From positions 1 through 35,707 of the forward strand of contig JBEKXL010000023.1 in assembly GCA_049512075.1 (NCBI GenBank): a stretch of 35,707 bases of DNA, given 5' to 3'. Position numbers and translations under genes: made by a program. Below are positions 4,680-35,707 of the stretch, in pieces. Under the pieces are notes generated by a model. It did not search any database, was not told the DNA's origin, and worked only from the letters and a program-made list of their open reading frames with translations. Origin of the DNA: Candidatus Bathyarchaeia archaeon. GTDB taxonomy: Archaea > Thermoproteota > Bathyarchaeia > Bathyarchaeales > Bathycorpusculaceae. The number at the start of each line of letters is the position of its first letter. The first letter of the stretch is position 1.

Positions 4680-4748
4680 TACTGTTATTGGTCACATAAA
4701 ATGTGCAGAATCGACTTATTATCAAGTTATCTTTACTGAGAACGTAAA

Positions 4749-5718: not shown

Positions 5719-5785
5719 CTTAAAAATCTATATTTACTAAATAGTTAGACCATTAATGGAAACCCAAAAGCTTCACCGAAGCTTA

Positions 5786-5810
5786 GACAGAAATCTTAAA
5801 TCTGCACAGC
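5786..5810 (+). repeat. Repeat A copy 2, BRE-TATA promoter of the 5826 gene
   Basis: GACAGAAATCTTAAATCTGCACAGC; TTAAAT about 30 nt before ATG 5826. Confidence 0.85.
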
Positions 5811-5825
5811 TAGAGATAGCTAAAC

Positions 5826-6218: not shown

Positions 6219-6250
6219 AACTTAAACCCCAACCCAATCCGTGCATACGC

Positions 6251-6286
6251 TTTATATCTACACGGCAACAGAAGACGAACTAGGGG
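6251..6286 (+). repeat. Repeat A copy 3 (partial), promoter of the 6295 gene
   Basis: TTTATATCTACACGGCAACAGAAGACGAACTAGGGG. Confidence 0.7.
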
Positions 6287-6294
6287 ATTCAAGA

Positions 6295-6882: not shown

Positions 6883-6898
6883 ATCCTATTCTTTTTTT

Positions 6899-6955
6899 AG
6901 TTTAAGCCATGCCGTACAAAGAAGACAGAAATCTTAAATCTGCACAGCAACAGAA
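6899..6955 (+). repeat. Repeat B (TTTAAGCC core 6901-6908) followed by repeat A copy 4 (6924-6955)
   Basis: AGTTTAAGCCATGCCGTACA also at 7626-7645; GACAGAAATCTTAAATCTGCACAGCAACAGAAG follows. Confidence 0.85.
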
Positions 6956-6976
6956 GGACAAGATAGGGGTTTTAAA

Positions 6977-7609: not shown

Positions 7610-7732
7610 AACCCACTCTTTTTCCAGTTTAAGCCATGCAGTACAGAAGGCTCTAGTCAAGCTGAAAGCGGAATATGAGAAAGGGAAAACTTAGACTAAT
7701 AGAAAAAAGAAAGCAAGCGCGCGCTCTGGAGA

Positions 7733-15037: not shown

Positions 15038-15136
15038 TGGAGATATCTCCCGAAGAGGCACTATACTAAGGGTGACTTCCAACACTACCATGGACCAAGG
15101 CATCTTATTAACGTTTATGGGAGATGTCTCCCGAAG
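15038..15136. repeat. Two copies of a palindromic 18-19 nt repeat, 81 nt apart
   Basis: TGGAGATATCTCCCGAAG (15038-15055) and TGGGAGATGTCTCCCGAAG (15118-15136). Confidence 0.7.
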
Positions 15137-15282
15137 TCCGTCTTCACATGACCGTTTTCTTCTAAGGAGTGGACGAGTCAAACTGGCTTAAAAAGAATAT
15201 GTCGAAAGCGTAGAGCAGGGATACAACTGGAAACGATAGACTTGCTATGAAAAAGTGCGCGCGCTCTATGTCTTGGAAACGG

Positions 15283-18424: not shown

Positions 18425-18712
18425 CTATGAAGGTTTAGGAGGAATCAAAGCAGGACTTGAACCTGTGACCGATGGAGCGCGGGCAACGATGGAGCTTACG
18501 GTGCTCTTGACACCTTTAATCTTCATCACCTTGTTCTTGAGAATCTCCCTCAATTCCTCAATGTCGGACGCTGAAAACACGGTGACAATGTCAAACTCGC
18601 CCGTTACCTCGTAAAGCTCCTCGATATTGTCAAGTTTAGACAGCGCCGCTACTACGTTATCCATTTCTGGTGACTCCACGAAGATGTCGACGAACGCAAG
18701 TAGACGGGACAT
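18425..18712 (-). CDS. Lrp/AsnC ligand-binding (RAM) domain-only protein, copy 1 with altered C-terminus
   Basis: ELYEVTGEFDIV...IKGVKSTVSSI; close paralog of 24665-24934. Confidence 0.85.
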   Translation of the reverse strand: MSRLLAFVDIFVESPEMDNVVAALSKLDNIEELYEVTGEFDIVTVFSASDIEELREILKNKVMKIKGVKSTVSSIVARAPSVTGSSPALIPPKPS

Positions 18713-23177: not shown

Positions 23178-23349
23178 CTATTCCGCGACTCCAAAAGACA
23201 GCAAGCTGACTCACTATGGCTCCTTTCCGCTCCTTCCTATTTTAACGGTGAAACTCACGTTTTTCTGTTGGCATTTGGGTCCCTTGTGAAACTCCAAGAT
23301 TATAGCGGTTATTGTGCTCTTATGCCTTTAAACTTTATTATTTTCTTCT

Positions 23350-23710
23350 GTAGGACATCTGGAAGTCTTCGAGGCAAGATGCCGAAATCAGGGTGCGGAA
23401 CTCTACCCGTTATTCCGTGTCCAAGAAGTCAAAGTAAAGGCGTCAGGGGCATTCTGAGAGTCGATCGGAAGTTTAGGAGTCCTGGTCCTCAAGAACTCAA
23501 AACAGCTTACAAGAAACGGGAGGTAATAGAGCGAGTTTTCAGTAGACTCAAAAACTTGTCAAGTCTTACGCAGCATAATCTCAGAGGATTAGCCAAGGTA
23601 ACGTTTCATTTTCAGCTCTGCGTCATTGCGATGCTTCTGACAGCTCAAGCAGCTGTCAACACGCACAAATTAAGCAAATCCAGAAGCGTCAGATATTTCG
23701 CGAACCAATT
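23350..23710 (+). pseudogene. C-terminal remnant of a DDE transposase (IS4/IS5/IS1182-like)
   Basis: PVIP...AYKKREVIERVFSRLK (Y-2-R-3-E-6-K signature)...RGLAKV. Confidence 0.8.
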
Positions 23711-23733
23711 TCGGAACAGCATGCGCGGCGCGC

Positions 23734-24171
23734 TCATCGATTGGCGTCGGTTAAGGGATATCGGGTCATGGCATCGATTATTTCTTCACTGAAGGTTTTT
23801 TTGCTAAGGTGCCTGGCAAAATCGGAAGTGGCTATTATACCGACCAACACGTCTTTCTTCTTAACAGGAAGCCGCCTTATTTTGTACTTGACCATTTTCC
23901 TCGCAGCATCTCTGATTGAGGCTTCCTCCTCGATTGTTATAAGCGGATCAGACATTACCTCAGAGACTTTAGTATCAAGCGGTTTTTTCTGTGCCATTAC
24001 CCTTCTAACTAAGTCTCTTTCAGTAACTATTCCCTTTGCGACATTGCCCTCCATTACTACGAGATCACCTACATCTTGTTGGTGCATTAGCTTTGCAGCC
24101 TCAAGCACGGTCCTATGAACATCAATTGTGATGACATTCGTGGTCATAAAATCTCTTACAGTTGGCATCAT
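23734..24171 (-). CDS. Tandem CBS-domain protein
   Basis: VRDFMT, GIVTERDL, VSEVMS, IRRLPV, LVGII; start moved to ATG 24171. Confidence 0.92.
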   Translation of the reverse strand: MMPTVRDFMTTNVITIDVHRTVLEAAKLMHQQDVGDLVVMEGNVAKGIVTERDLVRRVMAQKKPLDTKVSEVMSDPLITIEEEASIRDAARKMVKYKIRRLPVKKKDVLVGIIATSDFARHLSKKTFSEEIIDAMTRYPLTDANR

Positions 24172-24244: not shown

Positions 24245-24580
24245 CAGCAGAGCACTTGTGGTTATGCGTTCGAGGCCTCTGGCCCTGTGCCTTCCGAGGC
24301 AGAGCTGCTCATTCAAACGAGAATTCATCCGTTCAATAGCTCCTCTCCACGTCCTTCGCTCTTTTGCAAAGCCCTGAAGACTACAGGGCAGCTGATGAAG
24401 GCGCTTATCGCTGATTTGCAGTTTTCAAGCAGGAAACTCAGAGAACAGCTTTCGGCTCGCGGAGTAAGAGCGGTGATTCCTTACCCAGCAAACCAGAGCA
24501 AGCGAGAGGCGAAGCTGCTGCGGGTGGACAAGTACCTCAGGACTCATGATCCCGTTGTCGAGAAGCAAATCTACACACAG
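24245..24580 (+). pseudogene. Central remnant of a DDE transposase of the same family as 23350-23710
   Basis: LIADLQFSSRKLR (second Asp), AVIPYPANQSK...LRVDK aligns with PVIPCPRSQSK...LRVDR; boundaries approximate. Confidence 0.75.
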
Positions 24581-24664
24581 GACTTGAATGGTCTCGATCA
24601 AATTTTGCAAAACCTCTTTCGGCTATGGCCTGCCCCTCCACGAAATACTTTAGCCCAGTCCTAC

Positions 24665-24934
24665 CTACTGGCGTGAGCGGGCGCGAGGTCCTTTGTGTGT
24701 CTTAAGAATGATGGAGCTTACGGTGCTCTTAACACCCTTGATCTTCATCACCTTGTTCTTGAGAATGTCCCTGAACTCCTCAATGTCGGACGCTGAAAAC
24801 AGCGTCACAATGTCAAACTCGCCCGTTACTTCGAAAAGTTCTTCGAGATTTTCAAGCTTGGAAAGAGCTGCCACTACGTTGTCCATTTCTAGTGACTCTA
24901 CAAAGATGTCTATGAAGGCGAGAAGTCTCGGCAA
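24665..24934 (-). CDS. Lrp/AsnC ligand-binding (RAM) domain-only protein, copy 2
   Basis: ELFEVTGEFDIV...IKGVKSTVSSIILKTHK. Confidence 0.88.
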   Translation of the reverse strand: MPRLLAFIDIFVESLEMDNVVAALSKLENLEELFEVTGEFDIVTLFSASDIEEFRDILKNKVMKIKGVKSTVSSIILKTHKGPRARSRQ

Positions 24935-25133: not shown

Positions 25134-25296
25134 GGTTTGGGTTTCGAAGTGCCAATAACAATTAAAGTATGGTTTAATTGGTGTTTTGTCCATGCTTTCT
25201 CGCGCGCGCTTTCTAGGTTAGTTTGGGTTCGAATAACGATTACTGTTTAAAATCAAGTTTTAATTAGTATTATGTCCATAGTACTAAGCGCGCGCG
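25134..25296. repeat. Two degenerate tandem units of about 80-87 bp, each ending in a (CG)n tract
   Basis: Shared blocks GTTTGGGT(T)TCGAA, AATAACRATTA, TTAATTRGTRTTWTGTCCAT, then CGCGCGCG. Confidence 0.65.
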
Positions 25297-25456
25297 GACT
25301 CTGGGGCTACAACTTCCGCATTTTCAGCGAAAGTGTTATCCAATTCCCGCTTTTCCTTCGGCAATTTCAATGCCTTCTGCCATGTAGGTATGTTGAAAGA
25401 GGCGTATAGGCATTTTGAATTTGATGTTGAACAATAATACGCGCGCGGCCCTACTG

Positions 25457-26542
25457 TTATCCAATTACAGATTCTACGTTTAGATTGAGTACCACTTCTG
25501 AAATGTCGCTCGCGTATTCTGCTGTTCTTCTTACGCTTTCAATGAGTAACCTCAAGTTAGAGATTTGGTCGATTTGGACACTGTGGGAAGACAGAACCGC
25601 TTCCTTTTCCAGCTCGCGAACTTGGGCTAACTTTTCAATTACACTCTCAGCCAAATTGTAATCATGCCTAAACACAGCTTCCACGGCGCTTTCAAACATA
25701 GAAATAGCCAAGCTGCTCAATTTTTCTGTTTTTTCAAGAAGTTCCGGATTTATTGGATCTTTCAAGGCCAATATGTTTTCAGCTATTTTCGTGGCGTGGT
25801 CTGCTGTCCTCTCTACAGATTTCTCTATGAGCCTATACCCCAAACATTCTCTCGGATTGTTTAAGCCAATTTCCCTAACAATTCGAGCGTTGGAAACCGC
25901 CAACTTCAACAATCTCACGATGTACAAGCTAAATCGATTGACTTCCCGATCAGTCTCGACAACTGCCTTAGCGGCAGAATAATCCAAACTCGCAAGACAA
26001 CCAGCAGCTTCCCTGTGCATAGACGCAGCTATTATCGACATCCTGCGCAGGGCACTTTGAACACCAAGTTCTGAGTAGTTGAGCAATATCTGAAGCGTCA
26101 AATCTGTCGGGGAATCAATAACGATTTCCGCCCCCACCAAGTAGTTTCTAGCGAAATTCTTCATGTAATTCCTCAACCCTACCGCCAACGGCTGCTGACC
26201 TTGGGCTCTTACATGAAGAATGTTGTAGCCAACCAAGTAGGCTGAAATCGCCTTTCTCATAACTGCGTCTGGATTGTCATTTGACGAAACTCGAATAAAC
26301 GCTTCATCTTTTCTTTCCTTCTTTTCAAGTCTTGAAGATGTTATCGATAATGATCCATCCTCTTCTTCACTAAGAACCATCAGGCTTCCTTTCTTGAGTT
26401 GATTCCGAGTAACCCATTTCTTCGGCAGAGAAAGAATATAGGTAGACCCACCAGTCACCTGAAGCTTTCTCTGCTCTTCATTCTTCTTTTCTGCTACTTT
26501 GGCCAAATCAAACCGCCTTCCATTGTCCTCTATTGAATCCAA
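25457..26542 (-). CDS. Archaeal phosphate regulator, AbrB/MazE DNA-binding domain + tandem PhoU
   Basis: RKLQVTGGSTYILSLPKKWV; ERTADHA and RRTAEYASDISE. Confidence 0.92.
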   Translation of the reverse strand: MDSIEDNGRRFDLAKVAEKKNEEQRKLQVTGGSTYILSLPKKWVTRNQLKKGSLMVLSEEEDGSLSITSSRLEKKERKDEAFIRVSSNDNPDAVMRKAISAYLVGYNILHVRAQGQQPLAVGLRNYMKNFARNYLVGAEIVIDSPTDLTLQILLNYSELGVQSALRRMSIIAASMHREAAGCLASLDYSAAKAVVETDREVNRFSLYIVRLLKLAVSNARIVREIGLNNPRECLGYRLIEKSVERTADHATKIAENILALKDPINPELLEKTEKLSSLAISMFESAVEAVFRHDYNLAESVIEKLAQVRELEKEAVLSSHSVQIDQISNLRLLIESVRRTAEYASDISEVVLNLNVESVIG

Positions 26543-26643
26543 CTACTCTATTGAATACATACCACTTCTATATAGACTATAAAGGTTATGTCGGATTACT
26601 ATATAACAGACTCGCACTATGGTACAAATGCGAGGAATAAGAA

Positions 26644-27762
26644 ATGAAAACTATATACATAATCACGATCGCTATAGCCGCAATCGTCATAATTGCAGGA
26701 GGAGCAATAGCCTACATCTTCATAGCTCAGTCCAACTCACCAAACTCTCAGGCAACGGTCAAATTGAATGGCGCTGGAGCAACATTTCCATACCCACTGC
26801 TCAACGCCATGATCGCAAACTACACTACGCAAGTGGAAACTAACGTTCAAATCAACTACCAATCAATCGGCAGTGGAGGAGGAATCTCAGCGCTGAAAAG
26901 CAAAACAGTCGACTTCGCAGCCTCAGACGCACCGTTAACCGCCTCCGACATGGCCAGTGCACCAAACACCCTTCATATACCAGAAACAATCGGCGCAGTC
27001 ACGATAGCCTACAACCTCCCAGGCATACCCTCAGGTCTTCACTTGACCGGCAAAATCATCGCGGACATCTTCCAAGGCACAATCACAACATGGAACGACT
27101 CAGCAATACAAAGCCTGAACACAAACAGAACCCTCCCCGAAAAGACCATAACTACAATCCACAGATCAGACGGTTCAGGAACAACCTTCATCTTCACTGG
27201 CTACCTCAGCCTTTCAAGCCAGCAATGGAATAGCGCAGTCGGACAAGGCAAATCAGTAGCTTGGCCAGGAGGAATAGGCTCAAACGGCAACACGGGAGTC
27301 GCATCAACAGTCAACGGAACGCAATATGCCATCGGATACGTCGAGCTGGCTTATGCATTGCAAAATGGCATGACTGTCGCAGCAATACAAAACCCGACAG
27401 GCAACTGGATAGAGCCAAGCCTGGCTTCGACGCAATCAGCAGTTCAATCTGGAGCCGCAAGTGGTCTACCAGCAGGCGACGCAAGCTGGGTGAATGTGAG
27501 TCTTCTGAACACTTTAGATGCGAATGCCTACCCAATAGTGAGCTTCACCTACTTGCTTGCATACAAGGAACTCAACGTGATTCCACAAATGACTCGAGAA
27601 AGAGCGACAACGCTAGTCCAATTCCTTTGGTACGTAGTGCACGACGGACAACAACTCGCGCCCAGTCTCGCATACGCACAGCTGCCATCAAACGTAGTCC
27701 AAATAGACGAAGCAACCATCCGGTCAATAACCTTCAACGGACAAAACCTACCAACAAGCTAA
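26644..27762 (+). CDS. pstS: Phosphate ABC transporter substrate-binding protein
   Basis: GAGATFPYP, YQSIGSGGG, DFAASDAPL, HRSDGSGTT, AIGYVE. Confidence 0.97.
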   Translation: MKTIYIITIAIAAIVIIAGGAIAYIFIAQSNSPNSQATVKLNGAGATFPYPLLNAMIANYTTQVETNVQINYQSIGSGGGISALKSKTVDFAASDAPLTASDMASAPNTLHIPETIGAVTIAYNLPGIPSGLHLTGKIIADIFQGTITTWNDSAIQSLNTNRTLPEKTITTIHRSDGSGTTFIFTGYLSLSSQQWNSAVGQGKSVAWPGGIGSNGNTGVASTVNGTQYAIGYVELAYALQNGMTVAAIQNPTGNWIEPSLASTQSAVQSGAASGLPAGDASWVNVSLLNTLDANAYPIVSFTYLLAYKELNVIPQMTRERATTLVQFLWYVVHDGQQLAPSLAYAQLPSNVVQIDEATIRSITFNGQNLPTS

Positions 27763-27841
27763 AGGTGGCGTGAAACTGTGATCCACCATTTCCAAAAACC
27801 CCTTTTTGTTAGTAATCTCGGCAACAAGAGCAGGTCTACAT

Positions 27842-28783
27842 GTGAAAAAGCTTACCGGAGATAATCTTTTCAGAATATTAGCCGCCTCCATTGCGGCTTC
27901 AGCAGTCTTCATCCTCATAGTCACCGCATACACCCTCACAACTGGATCTAGCCTCGTTTTGCAGCGGTTTGGGACCAATTTTCTATTCGGATCAAATTGG
28001 AACCCAGTTGAGGGAAGAGAAGCGTTCGGGGCTCTTCCGTATGTTCTCGGGACGCTTGTCACTTCAGGCATCGCGCTTCTCATAGGTGTGCCTTTGAGCT
28101 TGGGCATAGCGATTTTTCTTGTGGAAATGGCTCCAAAATTCCTGAGAGTACCCATCGGATACCTTGTTGAGCTACTGGCGGCCGTTCCAAGCGTGATTTA
28201 TGGGCTTTGGGGTCTCTTCGTCTTCCGCTATTGGATCCTAGACTACGTTGAGATACCGCTATCCAATTATTTAGGGTGGATTCCGATTTTCAGCGGAACC
28301 CCCTTCGGTCTAGACATTTTCACAGCTGGGATAATTCTGGCAATCATGATAATACCTACAGTGGCGTCAATCTCCAAAGAAGTCATCGGCGCAGTTCCAA
28401 ACTCAATCAGAGAAGGCGCCTACAGCATCGGAGCCACAAAATGGGAAGTAATTAGGCACTGGGTTCTAAGCTATGGACGTTCTGGAATTTTCGGAGCAGT
28501 CATTCTAGGCCTTGGCAGAGCAGTAGGCGAAACAATGGCTGTCTCAATGCTCATAGGTAACGCAACAGGACCCGCTGCAATACCGACTTCTCTTTTTAGA
28601 CCTAGCCAAACAATGGCATCTCTTATAGCCAATGGCTTCTTGGAAGCGACGGGACCATTGGAGAAGTCAGCATATTTTGGCGTGGGATTGATTTTGCTCT
28701 TGGTGAGCCTGCTCATAAACGCAGCCGCTCAGGTGATGGTAACTCGTGTTCTGAAAGTCAAGGGAGGCGCGGTCGAGCAATGA
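27842..28783 (+). CDS. pstC: Phosphate ABC transporter permease
   Basis: ELLAAVPSVIYGLWG, GLGRAVGETMAV; start GTG 27842 or TTG 27806. Confidence 0.95.
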   Translation: MKKLTGDNLFRILAASIAASAVFILIVTAYTLTTGSSLVLQRFGTNFLFGSNWNPVEGREAFGALPYVLGTLVTSGIALLIGVPLSLGIAIFLVEMAPKFLRVPIGYLVELLAAVPSVIYGLWGLFVFRYWILDYVEIPLSNYLGWIPIFSGTPFGLDIFTAGIILAIMIIPTVASISKEVIGAVPNSIREGAYSIGATKWEVIRHWVLSYGRSGIFGAVILGLGRAVGETMAVSMLIGNATGPAAIPTSLFRPSQTMASLIANGFLEATGPLEKSAYFGVGLILLLVSLLINAAAQVMVTRVLKVKGGAVEQ

Positions 28784-29607
28784 CCAATTACAGCCTCAGA
28801 AAATTTAAGAACCAGCTTTTCTTTATCCTCTGTGCCGCTTGCGTAATCATCGCAATAATCCCACTGCTAAGCATTCTTTACGAGGTGGTCTCAAGAGGAG
28901 CGCCACAGCTGAGCATCAATTTCCTCACACAAAAGGATGCTGATGGCGGCATTGGGCCCGCTATCCAAGGTACTCTTATTCTGATAGGCTTGACAAGTAT
29001 CATTGGAATTCCAGTGGGCGTTTTGTCTGGCGTCTACTTGGCCGAGTTTGGAAACAACAAGTATGCTGCCTCAATTAGAACGGTCAATGACGTGCTGACG
29101 GAGTTTCCGTCAATAGTTGTTGGAATCACGGCTTTCGGCGTGGTGGTTCTCGGCATTATAGGGAGCTATTCTCCGCTCGCAGGTGCCGTTGCGCTTTCTT
29201 TTATTCTCATTCCAGTAGTGGCTAGGACTACCGAGGAGTCACTGAAACTAGTTCCCAACTCTGTCCGCGAAGCTTCACTCGCGCTGGGGGTTCATAAGTG
29301 GAGAACCACCCTGAGCGTTGTCTTGCCAGCCGCAAAGGGTGGTTTGGTGACAGGAACTCTTCTCGCAATTGCCAGAATAGCTGGCGAGACTGCACCCCTA
29401 ATTATGACCATTTTAGGCAATTCGTATTTCTTCCAAGGCTTCTCCTCACCCATGGATGCCTTGCCCCTGAGAATCTGGAGAGATTCGCTGCAGCCTTATG
29501 CCAATCTGCAGGCACAAGGCTGGGGAGCCGCGCTAGTTCTAATTCTAATAGTGTTAAGCCTGAACATTGCCGTTAGAGTGGCAAGCCGAGGTCGACTGAG
29601 AAGATGA
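28780..29607 (+). CDS. pstA: Phosphate ABC transporter permease
   Basis: [24 protein letters not shown]; ATGA overlap with pstC. Confidence 0.95.
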
Positions 29608-30425
29608 CAACCCTAAGAATGAGCAACAAGAATGGGGAGACAGCCGTCAACTTGGAACAAGTGCGACCAGAGGCAAAGATGCAGAGTATCGCTTTAAACG
29701 CGTGGTTTGGCTCCAAACAAGCCTTGAAGGACATAAACCTTACCGTAAAAGCCAACGCGGTCACAGCCATAATCGGTCCTTCAGGATGCGGAAAGTCCAC
29801 TTTCATACGCTGCCTCAACAGAATGCATGAGTTAGTCCCAAACGCAAGAATGTCTGGACAAGTGCTTCTCGACGGAAAGAACATCTACAGCAAGGAAACC
29901 GACTCCGTACAGATCCGCCGGAGAGTAGGCATGGTTTTCCAGAAACCAAATCCGTTTCCCACCATGTCTATCTACGACAATGTAGCAGCAGGATTGAAAC
30001 TCACGGGCACAAAGAAAGGTCAGAACCTCGATGAGATTGTGAAAAAGAGTCTTCAGCAGGCAACCTTGTGGGATGAAGTTAAGGATGATTTGAAAAAGCC
30101 CGGAACAGGCATATCAGGGGGCCAACAACAGAGGCTCTGCATCGCCCGCGCAATTGCATTACAGCCCGAGGTAATTTTGATGGATGAACCCTGCTCAGCT
30201 CTTGACCCAATTGCCACAGCCAAAATTGAAGAGTTAATAGTGCAGCTCAAGAATGATTACACTGTCGTTATTGTCACCCATAATATGCAGCAAGCCGCAC
30301 GTGTTTCAGATTTCACTGCTTTTATGTACTTAGGTCAACTAGTGGAGTTCGACGACACGACAAGTATGTTTGAAAACCCCAAGAGTGAGCTAACAGAGAA
30401 ATACATAACTGGAAAATTCGGTTAA
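29604..30425 (+). CDS. pstB: Phosphate ABC transporter ATP-binding protein
   Basis: [50 protein letters not shown]. Confidence 0.97.
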
Positions 30426-30436
30426 GGTGATATGAT

Positions 30437-31081
30437 ATGCACAGACTACTGGACAGAGGACTAGAACAACTAACAGCCATGGTTTTCAACATGGGCAAAG
30501 TAGCTGAGAAAGCGTTGGCCATATCTATTGATGGCTTCGTCAGGGAAAAGGATACCTCGGGAGATGTACACGAGCTATCGGAAATTCTCCTCTCCTTGAC
30601 CGTGGAGGTGGAGGAGAAAGCCTTCGGGTTGATCGCCAAATATCAGCCTGTAGCGTCGGACTTGAGGATTATCAACTCCTACATGAAAATCGCTTACGAC
30701 TTCGAAAGGTACGGCAGGTATGCGTGGGACATATGCTTCATACGCAAGCGTCTGGGTGGCTTGAAAGACTGCGAAGAATGGATACCTCATTTCATCGAGG
30801 AAATGGGGGAAAAGGTTCTCCAAATGGTGCGGACAAGCATAAACTCGCTTAAGAATCAGGACACCGACCTCGCCAAAGCAATATCTAAGACAGAACAAGA
30901 AGTAGATGAAATGTACTTCCAATACCTCGACAAGCTCGTGAAAGAGGCACATGTCACAGGTCAGTGCACGACTTCAAGTGTACTCGTAGTAAGATACCTA
31001 GAGAGAATAGCTGACCATGCAACATACATTGCCGAAGCAGTCGTCTACATCGCTACAGGGCAGAAAATAACTCTTAGATAA
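30437..31081 (+). CDS. phoU: Phosphate signalling protein PhoU
   Basis: QPVASDLR, DFERYG, RYLERIADHATYIAE; GGTGA RBS. Confidence 0.95.
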   Translation: MHRLLDRGLEQLTAMVFNMGKVAEKALAISIDGFVREKDTSGDVHELSEILLSLTVEVEEKAFGLIAKYQPVASDLRIINSYMKIAYDFERYGRYAWDICFIRKRLGGLKDCEEWIPHFIEEMGEKVLQMVRTSINSLKNQDTDLAKAISKTEQEVDEMYFQYLDKLVKEAHVTGQCTTSSVLVVRYLERIADHATYIAEAVVYIATGQKITLR

Positions 31082-31227
31082 CTAGGAGAAAATTTGAACG
31101 TAGAGTCAATACTGAACTGGGAAAGTTGAAATCGCTGCATAACAGTATGGCTTGTAGTGGTTGAACTTGAGGAAGATTCTTTCTTCATGCTTAGGAAAGG
31201 CTTGGCAAAGCGAGAAGGTTTTTCTTA

Positions 31228-31722
31228 ATGAATAGGATGAAAGTCCTTTTATTGTGTGAGCACAATTCAGCCAGATCGCAGATGGCTGAAGGCTTGCTTA
31301 GGCATCTGTACGGTGAAAAGTATGAAGTCTTCAGCGCAGGCTCAAACCCGACGCAAGTCAATCCTTTTGCCGTCAAGGTTATGGCTGAGATAGGGATAGA
31401 TATTTCCAAGCAGACTTCCAAGAGCATTGAAGAGTTCCGAAACACGCAAATAGATTTAGTTGTATCAGTCTGCAAGACCAGCGCCAAGCTGATGTGTTCA
31501 CTCTGTTCTTCACCAATAGTTATGGGTAGACCCGAGATTATCAACACGACACTACCCGGAGCAAAACACTACCTTCACCATGGATTCAACGATCCTTCCG
31601 AACTGGACGGGAGTGATGAGGAAGAGACCATTGCCTTTCGACGCACAAGAGACGATATCAAGAAGTGGATAATTGACAATTTTGCCGATCCAAAGATAGT
31701 AAGCTTAGCTGATGATTTGTAG
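31228..31722 (+). CDS. arsC: Arsenate reductase, LMW-PTPase family
   Basis: CEHNSARSQMAE (CX5R), SAGS.P, EIGIDIS, DP...FRRTRDDI. Confidence 0.85.
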   Translation: MNRMKVLLLCEHNSARSQMAEGLLRHLYGEKYEVFSAGSNPTQVNPFAVKVMAEIGIDISKQTSKSIEEFRNTQIDLVVSVCKTSAKLMCSLCSSPIVMGRPEIINTTLPGAKHYLHHGFNDPSELDGSDEEETIAFRRTRDDIKKWIIDNFADPKIVSLADDL

Positions 31723-31747
31723 GCGCGTGCGCTTTTTCTGTTATGCA

Positions 31748-31795
31748 CTTTCGATGTATTCTTTTTAAGCCGATCTTTGATTTTGCGGAAAAGTT
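31748..31795 (+). repeat. Repeat B copy at the left edge of the right accessory block
   Basis: CTTTCGATGTATTCTTTTTAAGCC matches the reverse complement of 15185-15208; TTTTGCGGAAAAGTT matches the copies near 34795 and 35161. Confidence 0.75.
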
Positions 31796-31897
31796 GTCTA
31801 TTTCGAACTGAAAAGTAAGTTTTAATACCAAGTTGAACACCTTGTTATTTGTTACGAGCGAACCCTTGTCACATATGATAGACTGAGGCGGTTTGAA

Positions 31898-32404
31898 TTG
31901 TCAGAAGATGAATGGACTCAAAATATCAAGAAAATGAAAGAAAGAGAAAAGGAAATTGATGCTGTTGGGGAAGCAAAAAGGAAGGAATGGGAAGAACTTA
32001 AAGAGAAGCACAAAGATGAAGCCACGAAGATTATAGACCTACTCAATTCGGAACTGAAAAAAGTGCTCACCGTTTACGAAGACTCATCACTTAAAAAATA
32101 TGACAAACCCAAAGTGGAAGGTGACAACCGTTATGTGAAGTTGGATATTCCAATAGTCCGTGGGGGTTCTTACTATAGTTTCGGAATATCCTTCTGGTTG
32201 AAGTTGACTGAAAAAGGCTATGGGCTTGATGTAGTTAAAAGCACTTTTCTGACAAGGGATTCAACACCGCATGAAGACAAGACTTACATTCCGCCACTAG
32301 TAACAGCGATTGCGATACGGAAGGAAGTTACGGAAGTTCTTCAAGCACGAAACGAATCCATCAGGATTATGACAGAGCAAGAGGACAGATACCGCAAGCA
32401 ATGA
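31898..32404 (+). CDS. Hypothetical protein
   Basis: 168-aa ORF, TTG start after GAGGCGG, charged N-terminal helix. Confidence 0.7.
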   Translation: MSEDEWTQNIKKMKEREKEIDAVGEAKRKEWEELKEKHKDEATKIIDLLNSELKKVLTVYEDSSLKKYDKPKVEGDNRYVKLDIPIVRGGSYYSFGISFWLKLTEKGYGLDVVKSTFLTRDSTPHEDKTYIPPLVTAIAIRKEVTEVLQARNESIRIMTEQEDRYRKQ

Positions 32405-32656
32405 GAAAACAAATAGAAATCAAATCCCCAGTTCGTGCGAAGGACTTAGAGGGAAGATTTCACGTTCTGTTCAAGACTCTTGTGGGGGCAGACGGTTCAA
32501 GGAGAGAACTTTTTGATACCTACAAAAATGGTCACTCTAAACTTAAAGAAAGGCGAGTGTATAGCGTTGATAGACGAAAAAAGCAGATTCTGGGAATTGT
32601 ATAGAAACGAAAAGGGACTCTATATCTTGAAGAGATTAGATGAGGAAGAAGACTAG
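32401..32656 (+). pseudogene. Small hypothetical gene with probable +1 frameshift near 32450
   Basis: ATGA overlap with the upstream gene; removing one G from GAGGGAAGAT joins MRKQIEIKSPVRAKDLE to EDFTFCSRLLWGQ...LYILKRLDEEED*, and repeat B follows that stop. Confidence 0.5.
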
Positions 32657-32662
32657 AAGACA

Positions 32663-32760
32663 CTTCTATCAGTCCTTTCAAGCCAATTTGACCCTTTGAT
32701 TTTGGCGTCTTTCCGTTCTACGGCTTTCGTCTTCTATTGCTGTGCAGATTTAACGTTTCC
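32663..32760. repeat. Repeat B (+, 32663-32693) facing repeat A copy 5 (-, 32727-32760)
   Basis: CTTCTATCAGTCCTTTCAAGCCAATTTGACC; minus strand GGAAACGTTAAATCTGCACAGCAATAGAAGACG. Confidence 0.8.
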
Positions 32761-32849
32761 GCCTTAGCTTTGAATTGATATTGAGAATTAACAAGAGATT
32801 TATAATCAGACCGTAAACTAGAACTTGGCAAGAAAGAACGTTCCAGAAG

Positions 32850-34181
32850 GTGCGGAGAGACTTGGCTAGTAGTTTAGAGAATTTTAGATGCCCTTTGTGT
32901 GGCAAACCATTAGCTAGCGATGAATATCAAGATGCCGTAGGAAAACTCGAAAAAAAAGTAGCTGAGAAATATAACGAGAAAAACCAGCAGAGCAAGCAAG
33001 ATTACGAAAAGAAGATTGCGGAATTGACTTTAGGACATAAAGCAGAAGTCAAAAATCTAAAGGAGACTTACGAAGAACAACAAAAAACGTTCAAGAGAGA
33101 ACTACAGGATTCAAATAAGAAGCAGTTTGCAGAGTTGAAAAAGACTTATGATGAAATCAATAGAAAAAACCAAAAAGAATTCGGGAGATTGAGAAAGACA
33201 TTAGAAGATGAGCATAAGAAGGAATTGCGGAGAAAAGACCAGCAATTAACAGACATGAGAAAAGAACAATCTCGGTTGAAGAAGCTTGCTTTTGAAGAAG
33301 CTAAAGATGAAGCTAGTTCAGAAATAAGGAAATTGAAGGGCGACATTGGGGAGCGAGATATCCAAATAAAACGGTTCAATGATGAGGTTGAAGACTTAAA
33401 GAAACAATTGTCGCAAAGCCAAGCAGAATTGAAAGGTGAGTATGGAGAAATGGACCTCTACTCTACGCTCGTTCAAGCCTTTCCTGACGATAGCATTAGA
33501 AGGCAGAAAAGAGGGGAAATTAGCGGAGATTTAGTGCAACACATCAGGACTCTATCGAAAACACTTGCTACACCAATTGTGTATGACAATAAGCAAGCTG
33601 AGAGAGTTACGAAGAAGGACATAGAGAAAGCAAAAAACTACAAGAAAGTGCATAGAACTGAATACGTTATAATCGTCTCAAGCAATCTTCCTAAGAAAGA
33701 AATCAAGAATGCACTATGTGGAGAAAAAGAAGGGATTCTACTTGCACATCCCTCAATTGTTGTTGAAGTTTCTCGCCAGATTCGAAAAGCAATCATAGAG
33801 ATATCAAAGCAATCCGAAAGCGAAAAAGACCGAGAAACTAAAGAATCGAAACTGTATGATTACGTCAAGAGTCCAGAATTTTGTAGCACCATAGAGAAAA
33901 TCTATGGCATACATCAAAAAATGACAGAATTACAGAATAGAGAAGAGAAAGCACACGAAAGATTATGGAGAGAGAGAAAAGAATTACACACACAAATAAA
34001 CCAAACGTATATGAATATATCAGGTGGAATCGAAACCATACTTCAAGAAAAACCACCTATGGAAGAACTGACCAAAGAGGACACAGAACAAAAGGAAATC
34101 GAAGAATCGGCGAAAGAGCAGTTACCCATACTTGAAGTTAAACGTAAGAAGAAAAAAGCCACACAAACCGAAAGTTCTTGA
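32850..34181 (+). CDS. DUF2130-like protein (CxxC + long coiled coil + RmuC-like PD-(D/E)xK domain)
   Basis: CPLCG, long coiled coil, KGEYGE..L...AFPDD.I, GDLVQ, IVYDNK; start may be TTG 32862. Confidence 0.75.
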   Translation: MRRDLASSLENFRCPLCGKPLASDEYQDAVGKLEKKVAEKYNEKNQQSKQDYEKKIAELTLGHKAEVKNLKETYEEQQKTFKRELQDSNKKQFAELKKTYDEINRKNQKEFGRLRKTLEDEHKKELRRKDQQLTDMRKEQSRLKKLAFEEAKDEASSEIRKLKGDIGERDIQIKRFNDEVEDLKKQLSQSQAELKGEYGEMDLYSTLVQAFPDDSIRRQKRGEISGDLVQHIRTLSKTLATPIVYDNKQAERVTKKDIEKAKNYKKVHRTEYVIIVSSNLPKKEIKNALCGEKEGILLAHPSIVVEVSRQIRKAIIEISKQSESEKDRETKESKLYDYVKSPEFCSTIEKIYGIHQKMTELQNREEKAHERLWRERKELHTQINQTYMNISGGIETILQEKPPMEELTKEDTEQKEIEESAKEQLPILEVKRKKKKATQTESS

Positions 34182-34255
34182 AGCATTGCAATGCCTTTCT
34201 TTGCTCTTGAGTCTCTTTTTTCATCTTCATCACTCAGTATATCAGTAATGTTTCA

Positions 34256-34280
34256 AAAACCCGCTATTTGGCGGGGTTTT
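34256..34280. terminator. Hairpin with A/T tails between convergent genes
   Basis: AAAACCCGCTA-TT-TGGCGGGGTTTT. Confidence 0.45.
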
Positions 34281-34323
34281 CTCCCGTATTCCCGACTGAC
34301 ATAGATATCGCCAAGAATACGAT

Positions 34324-34354
34324 GGTCAAACTCGCTTAAAAGGACTGATAGAAG
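34324..34354 (-). repeat. Repeat B copy after the stop of the 34361 gene
   Basis: Minus strand CTTCTATCAGTCCTTTTAAGCGAGTTTGACC, three mismatches to 32663-32693. Confidence 0.85.
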
Positions 34355-34360
34355 AATGCT

Positions 34361-34774
34361 CTACAACAGAGCCAATATCCCAACTATGACAGCAACGACA
34401 CCTAACACTATGCTCACTGCCAATGAGAGATAGAAGTTTCTTCTTTCTCTTTTTGCGTCTTTCACAGCTTCATCTCGTTGTTCCTCAGCTAGTTTATTGC
34501 TTTTCTCCAGTTCGTCAGCAATCTTCTTGAGATATTCGAAACTCTGGTCAATGTGCAATGTATTTGCAATGGTGGCTTGACTAGCGTCAAAAGTCTCAGC
34601 TAATCTTCCATAATCCTGTTGGATAGAACCACTAATCGTGGAGATTGAAGTTGCAGAAGCCGCACCCGACAGCTTAATTTCTCCACTTGCTTTGACCGCG
34701 TAATTCTTGGGCTTGGCTTCTTTCTCACTCTCTTTTTCTTTCTTTTTTTCGCCCACTCTACTTCCTCTATTCAT
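34361..34774 (-). CDS. Hypothetical protein with C-terminal TM anchor
   Basis: Charged N-terminus, coiled coil, terminal hydrophobic helix; GAAAAGTTATA promoter about 25 nt upstream. Confidence 0.7.
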   Translation of the reverse strand: MNRGSRVGEKKKEKESEKEAKPKNYAVKASGEIKLSGAASATSISTISGSIQQDYGRLAETFDASQATIANTLHIDQSFEYLKKIADELEKSNKLAEEQRDEAVKDAKRERRNFYLSLAVSIVLGVVAVIVGILALL

Positions 34775-34789
34775 AATCTCTGCGTTCAG

Positions 34790-34835
34790 CTATAACTTTT
34801 CCCCAAAACCCAAAAACTGGCTTAAAAAGTCGAAG
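34790..34835 (-). repeat. Repeat B copy running into a BRE-TATA
   Basis: Minus strand TTTTAAGCCAGTTTTTGGGTTTTGGGGAAAAGTTATAG. Confidence 0.75.
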
Positions 34836-34865
34836 TTCCTAAAGTGGCAGAAGAGTCAGTAGAGT

Positions 34866-35117
34866 TTATTTTTCGACCGATTTCGGAAATGGAAAGAATA
34901 ATTCTACAAGCAAGAGTAGAAGTTTAAAAAGGTAATACACTAACAAAATAGGATAAGTGATGACCATAAACGCCATGACTATATCGACTCTATGCTTCTT
35001 TACGAACCTGAACAGCGTGTAAATTGTCAAGCCGTAGCCTATTAAGTCAAGAAGTTCCTTAATCATCTTCAAGGATGCATTGAAATCAATAATGTTTGAT
35101 GGTCTTTTGATAGACAT
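34866..35117 (-). CDS. Small hypothetical membrane protein
   Basis: ATG 35117 downstream of GAAATGTTATA; two hydrophobic segments. Confidence 0.55.
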   Translation of the reverse strand: MSIKRPSNIIDFNASLKMIKELLDLIGYGLTIYTLFRFVKKHRVDIVMAFMVITYPILLVYYLFKLLLLLVELFFPFPKSVEK

Positions 35118-35158
35118 GTTTTTCACTTTCACTATTGTAATTAGTTCTCTTGGTTCGA

Positions 35159-35207
35159 CTATAACATTTCCGCAAAACCTCAAACTGGCTTAGAAGAACT
35201 GATAGAA
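35159..35207 (-). repeat. Repeat B copy running into a BRE-TATA
   Basis: Minus strand TTCTATCAGTTCTTCTAAGCCAGTTTGAGGTTTTGCGGAAATGTTATAG. Confidence 0.8.
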
Positions 35208-35235
35208 CTATTCTCTATCTAGCAATTAACCTATT

Positions 35236-35586
35236 TCAACCAGTAGCAGTTTTCAGCCATTGATAGGTGTCCGCACTCGTTCTGTTATATATCGCAATCG
35301 TTGGATAATAGCCGTGATATTCAAGGAATAGATGACTGATGACTCCATTTATCAAACCGCCTGTAGTGTCTTCAATAGTGTAAGTTATCGTGAAGTTCTG
35401 AGGGTCTCCGACTGGATAGATGTTGACCGAATAGCTTGAATAGGTCTCCATATGGCTCGTAGCGGCTATATTGAATTTGACTTGTGTTTCATTATACTCT
35501 ATCCAAGGCTCAAGTTGATTTACCGTGATATTCGCATTCGCCACCGTGACAACCAGTTTCAAAGACGCATCGATGCTTCCTCTATT
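35236..35586 (-). pseudogene. 3' part of a secreted beta-rich protein gene, apparently truncated by the IS
   Basis: Frame open up to 35586 (NRGSIDASLKLVVTV...) where IS sequence begins; no signal peptide or promoter left; several N-x-S/T sequons. Confidence 0.6.
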
Positions 35587-35587
35587 T

Positions 35588-35707
35588 CAAGGGTGTGGGG
35601 GAAGAGAACCCCGGGGCTTGCCCCGGGCGGTGAATTCCCCCACTTAAGCCTTTATACTGAGCGTGTGTTACGAAAATGTGGAGATAACCTTGGAGATGGA
35701 GGCCGGG
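35588..35707 (+). mobile_element. Left end of IS200-like element with hairpin, promoter and probable tnpA start
   Basis: CCCGGGGC-TT-GCCCCGGG (35610-35627) nested in a GTGGGGGAA/TTCCCCCAC outer stem; TTTATA at about 35651; matches the hairpin at 98-117. Confidence 0.78.

Follow-up and report, generated by a model that had tools for sequence, protein, structure and literature searches.

Genes and Repeat Copies in the Window

The window (the whole stretch of Candidatus Bathyarchaeia archaeon DNA that was analysed, 35,707 nucleotides) carries at 31-35 kb a series of small genes interspersed with copies of a short element, repeat B, and this part is AT-rich as originally predicted, with a G+C content of 0.385-0.41 against 0.475 for the genome. 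Each copy consists of a left piece lying just after a gene, the core TTTTAAGCCAGTTT, and then one of two right pieces. The left piece is either M1a, a palindrome (TAGAAG-N3-CTTCTA) followed by TCAGTCC, or M1b, an alternative 40-nt piece. The right piece is either R1 (TTTTGCGGAAAAGTTATAGCTGAAC, BRE/TATA-like; written out in full (AAGCCAGTTTTTGG)TTTTGCGGAAAAGTTATAGCTGAACCGAAA) or R2/R3, roughly 60 nt long and closed by CGGGAG(A), often in the form of the palindrome CGGGAGA-YA-TCTCC. The features are as follows, with gene calls based on longest-ORF heuristics.

6901..6908, + strand: exact 8-mer inside a tandem gene duplication, as is 7628-7635; not a member of the family
15039..15052, - strand: solitary second CGGGAGATATCTCC motif, 81 nt beyond copy 6; a 19-mer is identical on contigs C19 and C11
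15120..15225, - strand: copy 6, with M1b, core (15177-15193), R3 (15127-15145) and end palindrome CGGGAGACATCTCCC (15120-15133); nhmmer E 5.1e-09
31733..31799, + strand: copy 1, with M1b (31733-31771, ending TTTTTAAGCC), a degenerate core and an R1-like piece; nhmmer E 1.6e-06
31781-31799, + strand: R1-like piece of copy 1, 3 mismatches, TATA part degraded
31898..32656, + strand: small ORFs between copies 1 and 2 (31898-32404, 32401-32604 and 32480-32656)
32654..32740, + strand: copy 2, with palindrome TAGAAGACACTTCTA (32654-32668), M1a (32664-32684), core (32676-32692) and an M1b-like remnant; nhmmer E 7.7e-10
32850..34181, + strand: DUF2130 coiled-coil protein, 443 aa, flanked by copies 2 and 3; PF09903, E 4.7e-20, above cut-off
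34247..34279, no strand: GC-rich hairpin and T-run (CCCGC...GCGGGG TTTT) that separate CGGGAG from the end of the DUF2130 gene; target-side flank of the putative crossover
34280..34363, - strand: copy 3, with palindrome, M1a (34333-34353), core (34325-34341), R2 (34291-34309) and CGGGAGA end (34280-34286); nhmmer E 5.2e-10
34361..34774, - strand: gene B, 137 aa; copy 4 (R1) before it and copy 3 after it
34784..34844, - strand: copy 4, with core (34811-34827) and R1 (34790-34808, then CTGAAC to 34784); nhmmer E 7.3e-07
34866..35183, - strand: gene C, at most 105 aa, no family match; copy 5 (R1) before it and copy 4 after it
35153..35216, - strand: copy 5, with palindrome, M1a (35187-35207), core (35179-35195) and R1 (35159-35177); nhmmer E 1.8e-07
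35236..35562, - strand: gene D, 108 aa, no family match; copy 5 after it

Copy 1 comes after an LMWPc phosphatase gene, whose stop codon is at 31720-31722, and after a GC-rich GCGCGTGCGC stretch; the M1b of this copy is matched on contigs C19, C30, C35, and C1. Copy 2 has no R1 and overlaps with the first part of a different repeat (32726-32765), which precedes the DUF2130 gene; it also has inverted matches (I1/I2) to the copies at 35173-35217 and 34324-34363. A short ATG frame within the R2 of copy 3 stops after 12 codons. Copy 4, which has neither M1a nor M1b, sits ahead of gene B and matches R1 copies on C10, C15, C6, and C11 at 87-92%; copy 5 sits ahead of gene C (likely ATG at 35118) and matches copies on C10 and C11 at 78-81% over 78-81 nt. 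Both had been described as running into the promoter of the next gene, and both indeed carry the promoter-like R1. Copy 6 lies between nikR and a HIT gene, outside 31748..35207, with a near-identical unit on C19. The ORFs 32401-32604 and 32480-32656 overlap in different frames, and none of the small ORFs between copies 1 and 2 matches a family. Among the genes around the array, the sole match of gene B, to DUF3040, stays below threshold (E 0.0025; 18.5 bits, cut-off 24.7), and besides it and the DUF2130 gene the other four have no Pfam match at E<=0.01. The DUF2130 gene also has a 68% DNA match in one same-genus genome and lies on the target side of the proposed CGGGAG crossover.

Membership and Modular Structure of the Repeat B Family

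The exact core TTTAAGCC occurs seven times in the window against 1.58 expected, a count that none of 100 shuffles reached, and the copies at 32677, 34333, and 35187 differ from it by one base each. A profile built from six copies and searched by nhmmer against the 2,725,246-base genome (E<0.05) bore out the family at genome scale, with matches at 16 places, six of them inside the window (31745+, 32658+, 34359-, 34844-, 35212-, and 15211-). Repeat B is a real family of modular copies with no single site. Eight copies had been proposed, and for six of these, which form one family, the proposed consensus is right; those at 6901(+) and 7628 belong to a 682-nt local tandem duplication (6252-6418 and 6934-7100, 72%; 6867-6918 and 7594-7645, 77%), have only ...AGTTTAAGCCATGC in common with the family and are missed by the profile. 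The exact cores at 21415 and 25860 were also rejected, being intragenic with flanks unrelated to the family.

Qualitatively, the copies do come after a gene and share its orientation, as had been claimed: a co-oriented frame of at least 60 codons ends within 150 nt upstream of 24 of the 33 left-module matches in the source genome and its relatives (three of which look like chance intragenic matches), against 0.41 for random places. As TTTAAGCCAG occurs only nine times in the genome, five of them in repeat B, the core is no general terminator, the reading that the original prediction had named as its counter-case. Left pieces also include, among others, the 3' ends of GNAT genes, M1a or M1b is found with R1, R2, R3, or the M1b remnant, and the switch between modules falls within AAGCCAGTTT.

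R1 as a Putative Portable Promoter

The M1a-plus-core 26-mer (up to three mismatches) was found in 8 of 41 genomes, including all four other genomes of the genus and three other genera, with no match for the reversed control. The R1 25-mer was found in 39 of 121 genomes of this family of Bathyarchaeia (26 of 70 genera, up to 32 copies per genome; reversed control 0 throughout), and 94 exact R1 matches were obtained from 185,579 species genomes, 79 of the 80 listed being titled Bathyarchaeia/ota. Among same-genus genomes the repeat modules are 79-100% identical (mostly 80-95%) against only ~70% DNA identity for the pst operon. To judge from these sequence comparisons, the modules appear specific to one Bathyarchaeia family, where they seem to punctuate accessory-gene islands.

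In 55 aligned R1 copies, conservation is limited to ~45 nt around the GGAAAAG-TTATAG block. The distance from R1 to the start codon is 17-54 nt in 35 of 42 R1-gene units (5 and 74-112 nt in the remainder) and is fixed at 36-37 nt for GNAT genes. These units represent 17 unrelated protein families, and in relatives they form co-oriented one-gene arrays, such as one with 13 R1 copies over 14 kb, with cargo that includes GNAT, DinB, DUF4760, SnoaL, CMD, glyoxalase, methyltransferase, and flavodoxin genes. The tRNA genes of the source genome have similar A-rich TTATA boxes upstream. Because of its position and this likeness to tRNA promoters, R1 is predicted to be a portable BRE/TATA promoter for the next gene. 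The suggestion of a shared terminator-promoter linker fits R1, which lies ahead of at least 17 unrelated families, but not the core to which it had been assigned.

CGGGAG as the Candidate Crossover Site

Locus L135 is 100% identical to window positions 25228-34285 and then continues as contig C19 from 4185 to 752 (2 mismatches in 3440), and only the 7-mer TCTCCCG is common to both parents at the joint. The alternative form is found in locus L136 and in the window's own assembly, and an 11-kb contig of run X6 (depth 41) has the L135-form joint at 34286, although L135 and run X6 may share a data set and so possibly are not independent. This is the one strain-level rearrangement seen, and a joint with 7 nt of microhomology could stem from a single illegitimate recombination. 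The unitig 34247-34286 has a depth of 329, where its neighbours have ~94, and in runs X1, X5, and X7 it continues into several alternative flanks that the source genome lacks.

A second line of evidence comes from contig C11, where CGGGAG stands at both ends of a 5,801-bp stretch, within which the gene for a tyrosine integrase lies at the left end. The left flank of this element is an R2 module, and its right flank (ATATCTCCACTCG) is close to the sequence that follows an uninterrupted R2 on C29. The direct repeat is 6 nt only, and no excised circle or attP junction of the element was observed. Homologues of its integrase are only 27-29% identical within the genus, against 79% in another genus and 64% in another family, and the homology upstream of them sets in at CGGGAG (CGGGGG in the copy from the other family). 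In the source genome CGGGAG lies 79 nt before the ATG, and the gene starts 79 nt after an R2 copy. The arm upstream of the integrase occurs in five copies in 4 of 151 genomes, with unrelated DNA further left. The report of no visible integrase is accordingly correct within the window but not for the genome, which has 23 PF00589 matches; only one of the 19 integrase genes examined there lies in a clear CGGGAG context.

Beyond R2/R3, the DNA of relatives encodes housekeeping genes (Ham1, Kae1/TsaD, PmbA, PfkB, FTR, and ABC transporters) and in several places opens with a tRNA 3' fragment, such as 28 nt identical to the 3' end of tRNA-Leu. A synteny comparison of the nikR-HIT copy places the break ~25 nt from the motif, and a palindrome with arms 2 nt apart is an atypical core site for a tyrosine recombinase. 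Because of the strain break at 34280-34286, the bounds of the C11 element, and the start of the integrase-flank homology, the recombination site within the repeat appears to be CGGGAG(A) at the R2/R3 end (34280-34286 and 15127-15133) and not TTTAAGCC, at which no crossover is seen in the one strain variant available. A recombination site in the repeat had been proposed, though at the core, and the strain break inside the repeat speaks for the original prediction, which had named the lack of such breaks as a counter-case.

Proposed Mechanism and Alternative Explanations

On balance we favour, with moderate confidence, an accessory island built by integrases and punctuated by promoters, in which a modular repeat offers CGGGAG as the crossover for integrase attachment. 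M1a or M1b with the core TTTTAAGCCAGTTT would lie a few to ~120 nt after a co-oriented stop, where T-runs probably end the transcript. With R1 as the right piece, the repeat would supply the BRE/TATA promoter of the following gene; with R2/R3, CGGGAG(A) would be the crossover core of an attachment site for mobile elements with tyrosine integrases. Islands ending in R2/R3 are found at different chromosomal places in different strains, and the comparisons place integrase elements precisely at CGGGAG. Gene blocks may be delivered or exchanged beside the array through integration at CGGGAG, and the one-gene, one-promoter units may be reshuffled where the repeated modules recombine with one another. 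The part of the window beyond 34286, with genes B, C, and D and their R1 promoters, would be the end of one such block, and the repeat would mark where this Bathyarchaeia lineage (a peat archaeon) adds and swaps genes.

The original label of an integron-like array, taken here as a system with the TTTAAGCC/AAGCCAGTTT core as cassette site and each gene and its repeat moved singly by a recombinase encoded elsewhere, now seems unlikely. Left and right modules in many combinations that switch within AAGCCAGTTT, co-oriented arrays with one gene per repeat, cargo typical of integron cassettes, and patchy presence among genera agree with it. However, conserved hairpins and inverted R''/R' boxes are absent (RNAalifold on 12 copies gives 3 pairs at -0.51 kcal/mol with no covariation; single-strand DNA fold z-scores are -2.5 to +0.55), as the prediction itself had noted in finding no clear attC structure. 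Furthermore, the single available strain variant has no break at the core, the integrases near copies score 49-57 bits against an integron-integrase cut-off of 265, and the 69 ORFs (of 116) that were scanned in five R1-array loci of relatives (L032-L034, L036, and L037; stretches of 11-20 kb) gave no integrase match at E<=1e-5. Each unit also has a promoter-like module, whereas cassettes are promoterless. A purely regulatory role, in which R1 and the upstream palindrome form the shared promoter/operator of a lineage-specific regulon of small stress/detoxification genes, conserved through a dedicated transcription factor, and the repeats have no role in moving genes, fits the R1 part of the favoured explanation and is a rival only as a complete account, as which it is doubtful. 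It would explain the perfect conservation of a 25-nt motif across many genera, the start-codon spacing (mostly 17-54 nt, fixed within gene families), the retention of the palindrome TAGAAG-N3-CTTCTA though just 6 of the 33 copies use its TAG as the true stop codon, and the coherent cargo (GNAT, DinB, glyoxalase, CMD, and SnoaL). It leaves unexplained the R2/R3 copies that no conserved gene follows; in 10 of 11 copies the frame that opens in R3 is closed after 3-52 codons, and it diverges. Nor does it account for the tandem clustering of unrelated genes or for CGGGAG being the place of both the strain breakpoint and the integrase element.

It is very improbable that repeat B is a MITE-like element with an outward promoter, spread by transposition and landing between genes. 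The left boundary of conservation differs from copy to copy in the alignment of R1 copies, the modules recombine independently and not as one unit, and neither target-site duplications nor filled-versus-empty pairs were seen, even though the repeat is short, dispersed, multi-copy, and patchily distributed, a weak inverted similarity is visible between its ends (TTCTATCAG ... CTGAACCGAA, by reading the R1 alignment), and the genome contains DDE transposases and a contig-end repeat. Equally remote is an assembly artefact at 34286 with CGGGAG merely a conserved repeat end. All sequences are metagenome assemblies, and the 40 nt at 34247-34286 are multi-copy in the source sample, so that the assembly graph branches there; against this, seven identical bases at the joint are too few for a k-mer assembler to link the parents, neither form is confined to one assembly (one is shared by the window and L136, the other by L135 and the X6 contig), and the C11 element and the integrase flanks independently indicate CGGGAG.

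Comparison With Known Systems

Integron cassette arrays and CALINs have been reported, including in archaeal MAGs, and the passages concerned contain no mention of the repeat B motif of this lineage (Ghaly et al., 2022, PMC9668308). They resemble repeat B in their co-oriented arrays with one gene per repeat, in a cargo of small acetyltransferases, DinB, glyoxalase-type, and unknown proteins, and in having a tyrosine recombinase somewhere in the system. Repeat B differs in having no attC-type folded site and no IntI, in carrying a predicted promoter by which units would be self-expressed, and in a putative CGGGAG crossover at the array end and not between every gene pair.

In islands of the Islander type, tyrosine integrases insert at tRNA or other conserved sites (PMC4383910). 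The likeness lies in the integrase gene beside one end, the short direct repeat that bounds the element, the displaced tRNA 3' fragments that adjoin the site in some copies, and the presence of the same block at different sites in different strains. Archaeal SSV/pNOB8-type integrases provide the comparison for integrative elements. Here, by contrast, the target would be a multi-copy intergenic module (of the R2/R3 or AAAAAGGG..TTGCGGGAGA type) rather than a single-copy gene, identity at the core spans just 6-7 nt, and the C11 integrase gene is unsplit by integration. Repeated extragenic palindromes (REP/BIME) are targeted by IS1397 and the IS110 family, and a dispersed short palindromic repeat is likewise the landing site there, but with a DDE or DEDD transposase in place of a tyrosine integrase and without the gene-end and promoter modules that repeat B adds. 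Finally, archaeal promoters consist of BRE/TATA elements, and uniform promoters occur in some viruses and plasmids. R1 resembles them, and the tRNA promoters of the genome, in an A-rich BRE-like stretch with TTATAG after it, placed as expected relative to the start codon. It differs in being near-perfect over ~45 nt in front of unrelated genes from at least 26 genera, a degree of conservation that appears to exceed by far the normal need of a promoter alone.

Modular organization of repeat B

Repeat B is modular, and comparison of all copies in register resolves a left module with two alternatives (M1a and M1b), a core, and a right module of two classes (R1 and R2/R3), where the end of R2/R3 is often extended to the palindrome CGGGAGA-YA-TCTCC. 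The modules and the copies of the window are as follows.

Modules of repeat B and its copies in the window
M1a, left module, alternative 1: small palindrome TAGAAG-N3-CTTCTA, then TCAGTCC
M1b, left module, alternative 2: TTTTTCTGTTCTACGCTTTCGACATATTC
Core: TTTTAAGCCAGTTT
R1, right module, class 1: TTGG-TTTTGCGGAAAAGTTATAGCTGAACCGAAA
R2/R3, right module, class 2: homologous variants of ~60 nt, starting GACC..TATTCTT and ending CGGGAG(A)
15120-15225 (-): M1b, core and R3
31733-31799 (+): M1b and degenerate R1
32654-32740 (+): M1a, core and M1b remnant
34280-34363 (-): M1a, core and R2
34784-34844 (-): core and R1
35153-35216 (-): M1a, core and R1

The original prediction had listed eight copies, six of which were found by the profile; those at 6901 and 7628 were missed by it and fall within a 682-nt tandem duplication. 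Two adjoining coiled-coil ORFs (6241-6882 and 6977-7609, 213 and 210 aa) are tandem paralogues that match at 72% over 167 nt with a spacing of 682 nt, and ...AGTTTAAGCCATGC after each of them accounts for the two false copies. PADLOC gave weak coiled-coil matches only, for ORF 6241-6882 and the DUF2130 protein. The window contains 7 exact occurrences of the 8-mer TTTAAGCC versus 1.58 expected, a count reached in 0 of 100 shuffles, and the copies at 32677, 34333 and 35187 are one base off it. Searching the whole assembly (86 contigs, 2,725,246 bases, G+C 47.5%) with a six-copy profile returned 16 places at E<0.05, 6 of them on the window contig; cores at 21415 and 25860 were discarded as chance matches within genes. 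A BLAST comparison of 31500-35707 with the genome showed likeness over 34-81 nt at a time and no further, hence no larger repeat contains the copies. The region was confirmed as AT-rich, with a G+C of 0.385-0.41 over 31-35 kb.

Position 34286 divides the window. The pst-phoU operon, the LMWPc phosphatase gene (ending at 31722), small ORFs and DUF2130 are on its left; on its right is the end part of an accessory block, with genes D (35236-35562), C (34866-35183) and B (34361-34774) on the minus strand, and this block terminates in M1a-core-R2-CGGGAGA. Genes C and B would each be driven by an R1 copy as a candidate promoter. The final 130 nt of the contig (35575-35707) have counterparts of 96-100% identity in the terminal or near-terminal sequence of 12 or more other contigs (C2, C3 at both ends, C6, C8, C17, C19, C21, C25, C30, C31, C40, and C52) and resemble the terminus of an insertion sequence or of some other multi-copy element at which the assembly breaks. 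Following ORF 31898-32404, the reading frames 32401-32604 and 32480-32656, which differ in phase, overlap, the latter stopping exactly at the TAG of the palindrome in the second copy, and together they may represent a frameshifted or decaying gene (32401-32656). Elsewhere in the window, two AsnC-type ligand-domain genes (18425-18712 and 24665-24934), 84% identical over 241 nt, bracket kdpABC and two DDE transposase fragments (23160-23792 and 24287-24676), an arrangement that suggests rearrangement around the kdp operon.

A second repeat, AAGACAGAAATCTTAAATCTGCACAGCAACAGAAG, is present at 4747-4781, 5784-5818, and 6922-6956 (+), all within the other low-G+C stretch (3-7.6 kb), and at 32726-32765 (-), where it precedes the DUF2130 gene. 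Its reverse complement stands right before R1 in the relatives' loci L005, L035, and L038 (...TTTCTGTCTTTGAGG-TTTTGCGG) and ~40 nt upstream of R1 in L033, which suggests that the system includes it as an additional module. Many genes of these archaea have runs of the GCGCGCGC type immediately behind the stop codon or in front of the start, as at 31723-31732 of the window and at many other loci (e.g., downstream of LMWPc homologues in L149-L169).

R1 as a candidate promoter and M1/core as a possible gene end

Archaeal promoters are recognized by a TATA box ~25 nt upstream of the transcript start. Across 55 distinct R1 copies, information is high only from AAGCCAGTTTTTGG through GGAAAAG-TTATAG to CTGAACCGAAA, with unrelated flanks; AAGCCAGTTTTTGG lies upstream of R1 and CTGAACCG downstream. 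R1 occurs in relatives in co-oriented arrays with one R1 ahead of each ORF, reaching 13 copies in 14 kb on a single strand in locus L032. The 42 R1-ORF units fall into 17 protein families (17 GNAT, 7 DUF4760, 3 small proteins, 2 DinB, and 13 singletons), and the start codon lies 17-54 nt past R1 in 35 of them, the other seven having distances of 5 and 74-112 nt. The spacing from R1 to the start is constant in the GNAT genes (36-37 nt), and comparable A-rich TTATA boxes are present upstream of tRNA genes in the window's genome. Its placement ahead of start codons favours reading R1 as a putative portable promoter of BRE/TATA-like type.

Copies had been described as lying downstream of, and oriented with, the preceding gene, and this holds for 24 of the 33 M1a matches, versus 0.41 for random places. 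The genes adjoining copies in the window's genome encode GNAT, SnoaL, flavodoxin, DUF4760, and GIY-YIG proteins as well as unknowns. The TAG of the palindrome is present in 28 of the 33 matches and is a true stop codon in just 6; its conservation therefore belongs to the palindrome rather than to a stop signal. On this sequence evidence, we infer that M1 and the core form a candidate gene-end piece.

Distribution among Bathyarchaeia

Exact R1 gave 94 matches in 185,579 species genomes, and among the 80 matches listed, 79 have Bathyarchaeia or Bathyarchaeota titles and one has the title of a Methanomicrobia MAG. With up to three mismatches, the R1 25-mer was found in 39 of 121 genomes and 26 of 70 genera, with a maximum of 32 copies per genome (reversed control, 0 in 121/121 genomes), and the M1a+core 26-mer in 8 of 41 genomes, the window's own counted (reversed control, 0); the carriers of the 26-mer are all 4 other genomes of the genus and representatives of 3 other genera of the family. 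Within the genus, pst operon DNA is ~70% identical versus 79-100% (mostly 80-95%) for the repeat modules in many places, so conservation is higher in the modules than in coding sequence, and their distribution is, by the genome counts, patchy. One IMG/VR 'provirus' record contains R1 twice together with an M1a-core-CGGGAGA unit, with no PF00589 match in the record. Repeat B was downstream in none of 78 metagenome loci (of 80) that carry an LMWPc homologue 80-89% identical to that of the window and were aligned at the DNA level; most of these loci share just the gene with the window and a few also the upstream flank, so they are of no use for breakpoint mapping.

Probable recombination at CGGGAG

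Two metagenome loci found by LMWPc search are 100% identical to the window, and one of them (L136) follows it up to 35700. The other (L135) is identical to 25228-34285 and then continues into contig C19 of the window's genome, from 4185 down to 752, with 2 mismatches in 3440. At this joint the two parents share only TCTCCCG (34280-34286), the reverse of the CGGGAGA that ends R2 in the window and R3 in C19, and seven shared bases are too few for the joint to be the product of a k-mer assembler. In another strain, then, the CGGGAG site of the window is occupied by a different block, that of C19. The L135 form was recovered as an 11-kb contig from sequencing run X6, which may be the data set behind L135, and the window form from runs X1 and X5. 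This variant, from one polymorphic site with a very short core, is the first of four lines of evidence that point to CGGGAG as the recombination crossover; the others, given below, are an integrase element bounded by the motif, the start of integrase-flank homology at it, and the chromosomal nature of the DNA past it. For a nikR-HIT copy examined by same-genus synteny, where different species are compared, the break lies close to the motif and not on it.

In runs X1, X5, and X7, a 40-nt hairpin plus CTCCCG at 34237-34286 is covered 2.5-3.5 times as deeply as adjacent sequence, and on either side it is also joined to other flanks, which are missing from the window's genome; a more abundant relative or mobile element in those peat samples shares this stretch. 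Contigs from X1, X5, X6, and X7 also have loose ends at 32019, 32654, 34237, 34280, 34286, and 34785. The eight loose-end strings examined are absent from the window's genome, the window's own hairpin excepted, and belong to other strains or organisms, so nothing is concluded from them. Gaps in the coverage of the window by X6 and X7 do not indicate that the sequence is missing there.

The description of the array as lacking a visible integrase does not extend to the genome, where an integrase gene on contig C11 (44615-45760; PF00589, E 6.4e-12) starts 79 nt past the CGGGAG of an R2 copy. C11 carries, in order, this R2 copy, CGGGAG (44540), the tyrosine integrase gene, and a second CGGGAG (50341), the two motifs being 5,801 bp apart, and its right flank ATATCTCCACTCG closely resembles ATATTCCCACTCGGG, which follows an uninterrupted R2 copy on contig C29. 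This is the pattern that would be expected of an element inserted into an R2 site, with a direct repeat weaker than in classical cases because the core is just 6 nt. Homologues of the C11 integrase are 79% identical in another genus, 64% in another family, and 27-29% in its own genus, and upstream homology begins at CGGGAG (CGGGGG in the other-family copy). The integrase-side arm has five copies in 4 of 151 genomes and gave no match in the viral collection. On its left each copy has a short conserved stretch, which is AAAAA..GGGTTTGC in four and R2 in the window's genome, and beyond that unrelated DNA.

The geometry of the palindrome CGGGAGA-YA-TCTCC is unusual for the tyrosine recombinase class. 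A clear CGGGAG context was found for 1 of the 19 integrase genes of the window's genome, in five R1-array loci of relatives none of the ORFs scanned matched an integrase (gene calls throughout being longest-ORF heuristics), and no circular (excised) form was observed among assembled contigs. In relatives, the DNA past R2/R3 is chromosomal, codes for housekeeping genes and in several places starts with a tRNA 3' fragment, which in locus L012 is 28 nt identical to the end of tRNA-Leu. On contig C1 (295944-298381), ARAGORN reported a tRNA-Leu with a 2,338-nt 'intron' containing an integrase match (296385-296837); an integrated element probably interrupts the tRNA gene here.

A related family, AAAAAGGGG..TTGCGGGAGA-YA-TCTCCA, has at least six copies in the window's genome (C4 18524, C10 34758, C12 3124, C13 42893, C15 10094, and C36 5986). 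Some are followed by a tRNA 3' fragment resembling the T-arm and acceptor, and in the C15 copy GCGGGAG is able to pair with CTCCCGC downstream. No Rfam match was obtained for this family, and its copies could represent attachment sites, empty or old, or else a minihelix resembling a tRNA.

Alternative explanations for the repeat

Integrons are distinguished by IntI, which has an extra domain, and by mostly promoterless cassettes read from a common Pc promoter, and their attC sites are imperfect palindromes that fold as single-stranded DNA, with R''/L'' and L'/R' boxes (RYYYAAC ... GTTRRRY). Of the proposed integron-like character, the co-oriented arrays with one gene per site are retained, as in the three units of 34280-35216; the attC fold, IntI, and promoterless cassettes are not, each unit having an R1 module of its own. 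RNAalifold of 12 copies gave 3 pairs at -0.51 kcal/mol with no compensatory change, and single-strand DNA folds of six stretches gave z-scores of -2.49 to +0.55 with no common long hairpin, so repeat B is without the fold that defines attC. GTTTGAC within the core is one base off GTTRRRY, and the upstream inverse box is absent. Against the NCBIfam model TIGR02249 (cut-off 265), integrases on contigs C6 and C10 scored 49.1 and 56.8 bits and that on C11 had no match at E<=0.001; the integrases adjoining copies are generic tyrosine recombinases, far under the XerA and IntI cut-offs.

A terminator, a miniature transposon, a structured RNA and a coding segment were also considered. T-runs are present, so the core may act locally as a terminator; that it is not common as such after housekeeping genes was borne out by TTTAAGCCAG, which occurs 9 times in the genome, 5 of them in repeat B and another immediately behind a tRNA-Leu gene, and by TTAAGCCAGTTT, all 5 occurrences of which are in repeat B (reversed controls, 2 and 0, respectively). 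MITEs have terminal inverted repeats, a target-site duplication, and a fixed length; in repeat B the left boundary varies and the modules assort independently, which speaks against a MITE, and target-site duplications were not noticed in the copy flanks examined. Rfam gave 0 matches at the gathering score for the window and 0 at E<=1 for two loci with R3/P copies, and ARAGORN found 0 tRNAs in the window and in 11 relatives' loci with R2/R3-type or other M1a-core copies. R3 was also considered as the start of a small protein: its GTG frame runs for just 3-52 codons in 10 of the 11 copies and for 139 in the remaining one, and the frames diverge after ~8 residues, from which it follows that R3 is not coding. 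The ATG frame of R2 spans 74 aa on C11 and just 12 codons in the window.

Significance and comparison with known systems

Bathyarchaeia are abundant, uncultured archaea of sediment and peat, and to our knowledge almost nothing is known of their gene regulation and gene exchange. Integrase elements might dock at CGGGAG, itself part of a dispersed intergenic repeat; a captured gene would then become a unit with the lineage-wide R1 promoter in front and a standard gene-end piece behind, and the repeated modules could allow such units to be reshuffled and passed from genome to genome across genera. That these parts together make up a gene-capture platform of a Bathyarchaeia family, with integrase docking at double-stranded CGGGAG, self-contained units, and inter-genus shuffling, is a tentative proposal that we hold to be rather unlikely. 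Should site-specific capture indeed be what builds the arrays, Archaea would have a functional equivalent of integrons with an independent origin. R1 is a candidate standard promoter for use in metatranscriptomes and later in genetic tools, the C11-type integrase and CGGGAG are a candidate pair of integrase and attachment site with a very short core, and the motifs of repeat B can serve as a marker of accessory islands in metagenome bins.

Four motif strings were absent from the literature searched, except that the 12-mer TTCTATCAGTCC turned up by chance in a cancer paper on an unrelated subject, and searches for work on integrons in archaea, mobile elements of Bathyarchaeia, and arrays of conserved promoters gave no description of the system. 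Integron arrays have been reported in archaeal MAGs (PMC9668308). Repeat B arrays are like them in layout and cargo, the acetyltransferases, DinB, and glyoxalase-type enzymes resembling the cassette cargo of soil bacteria, whereas the defining features, attC and IntI, were looked for in repeat B and not found. Integrase-built genomic islands are alike in their recombination part; in contrast to these, the target here is a dispersed intergenic repeat module with a core of 6-7 nt.
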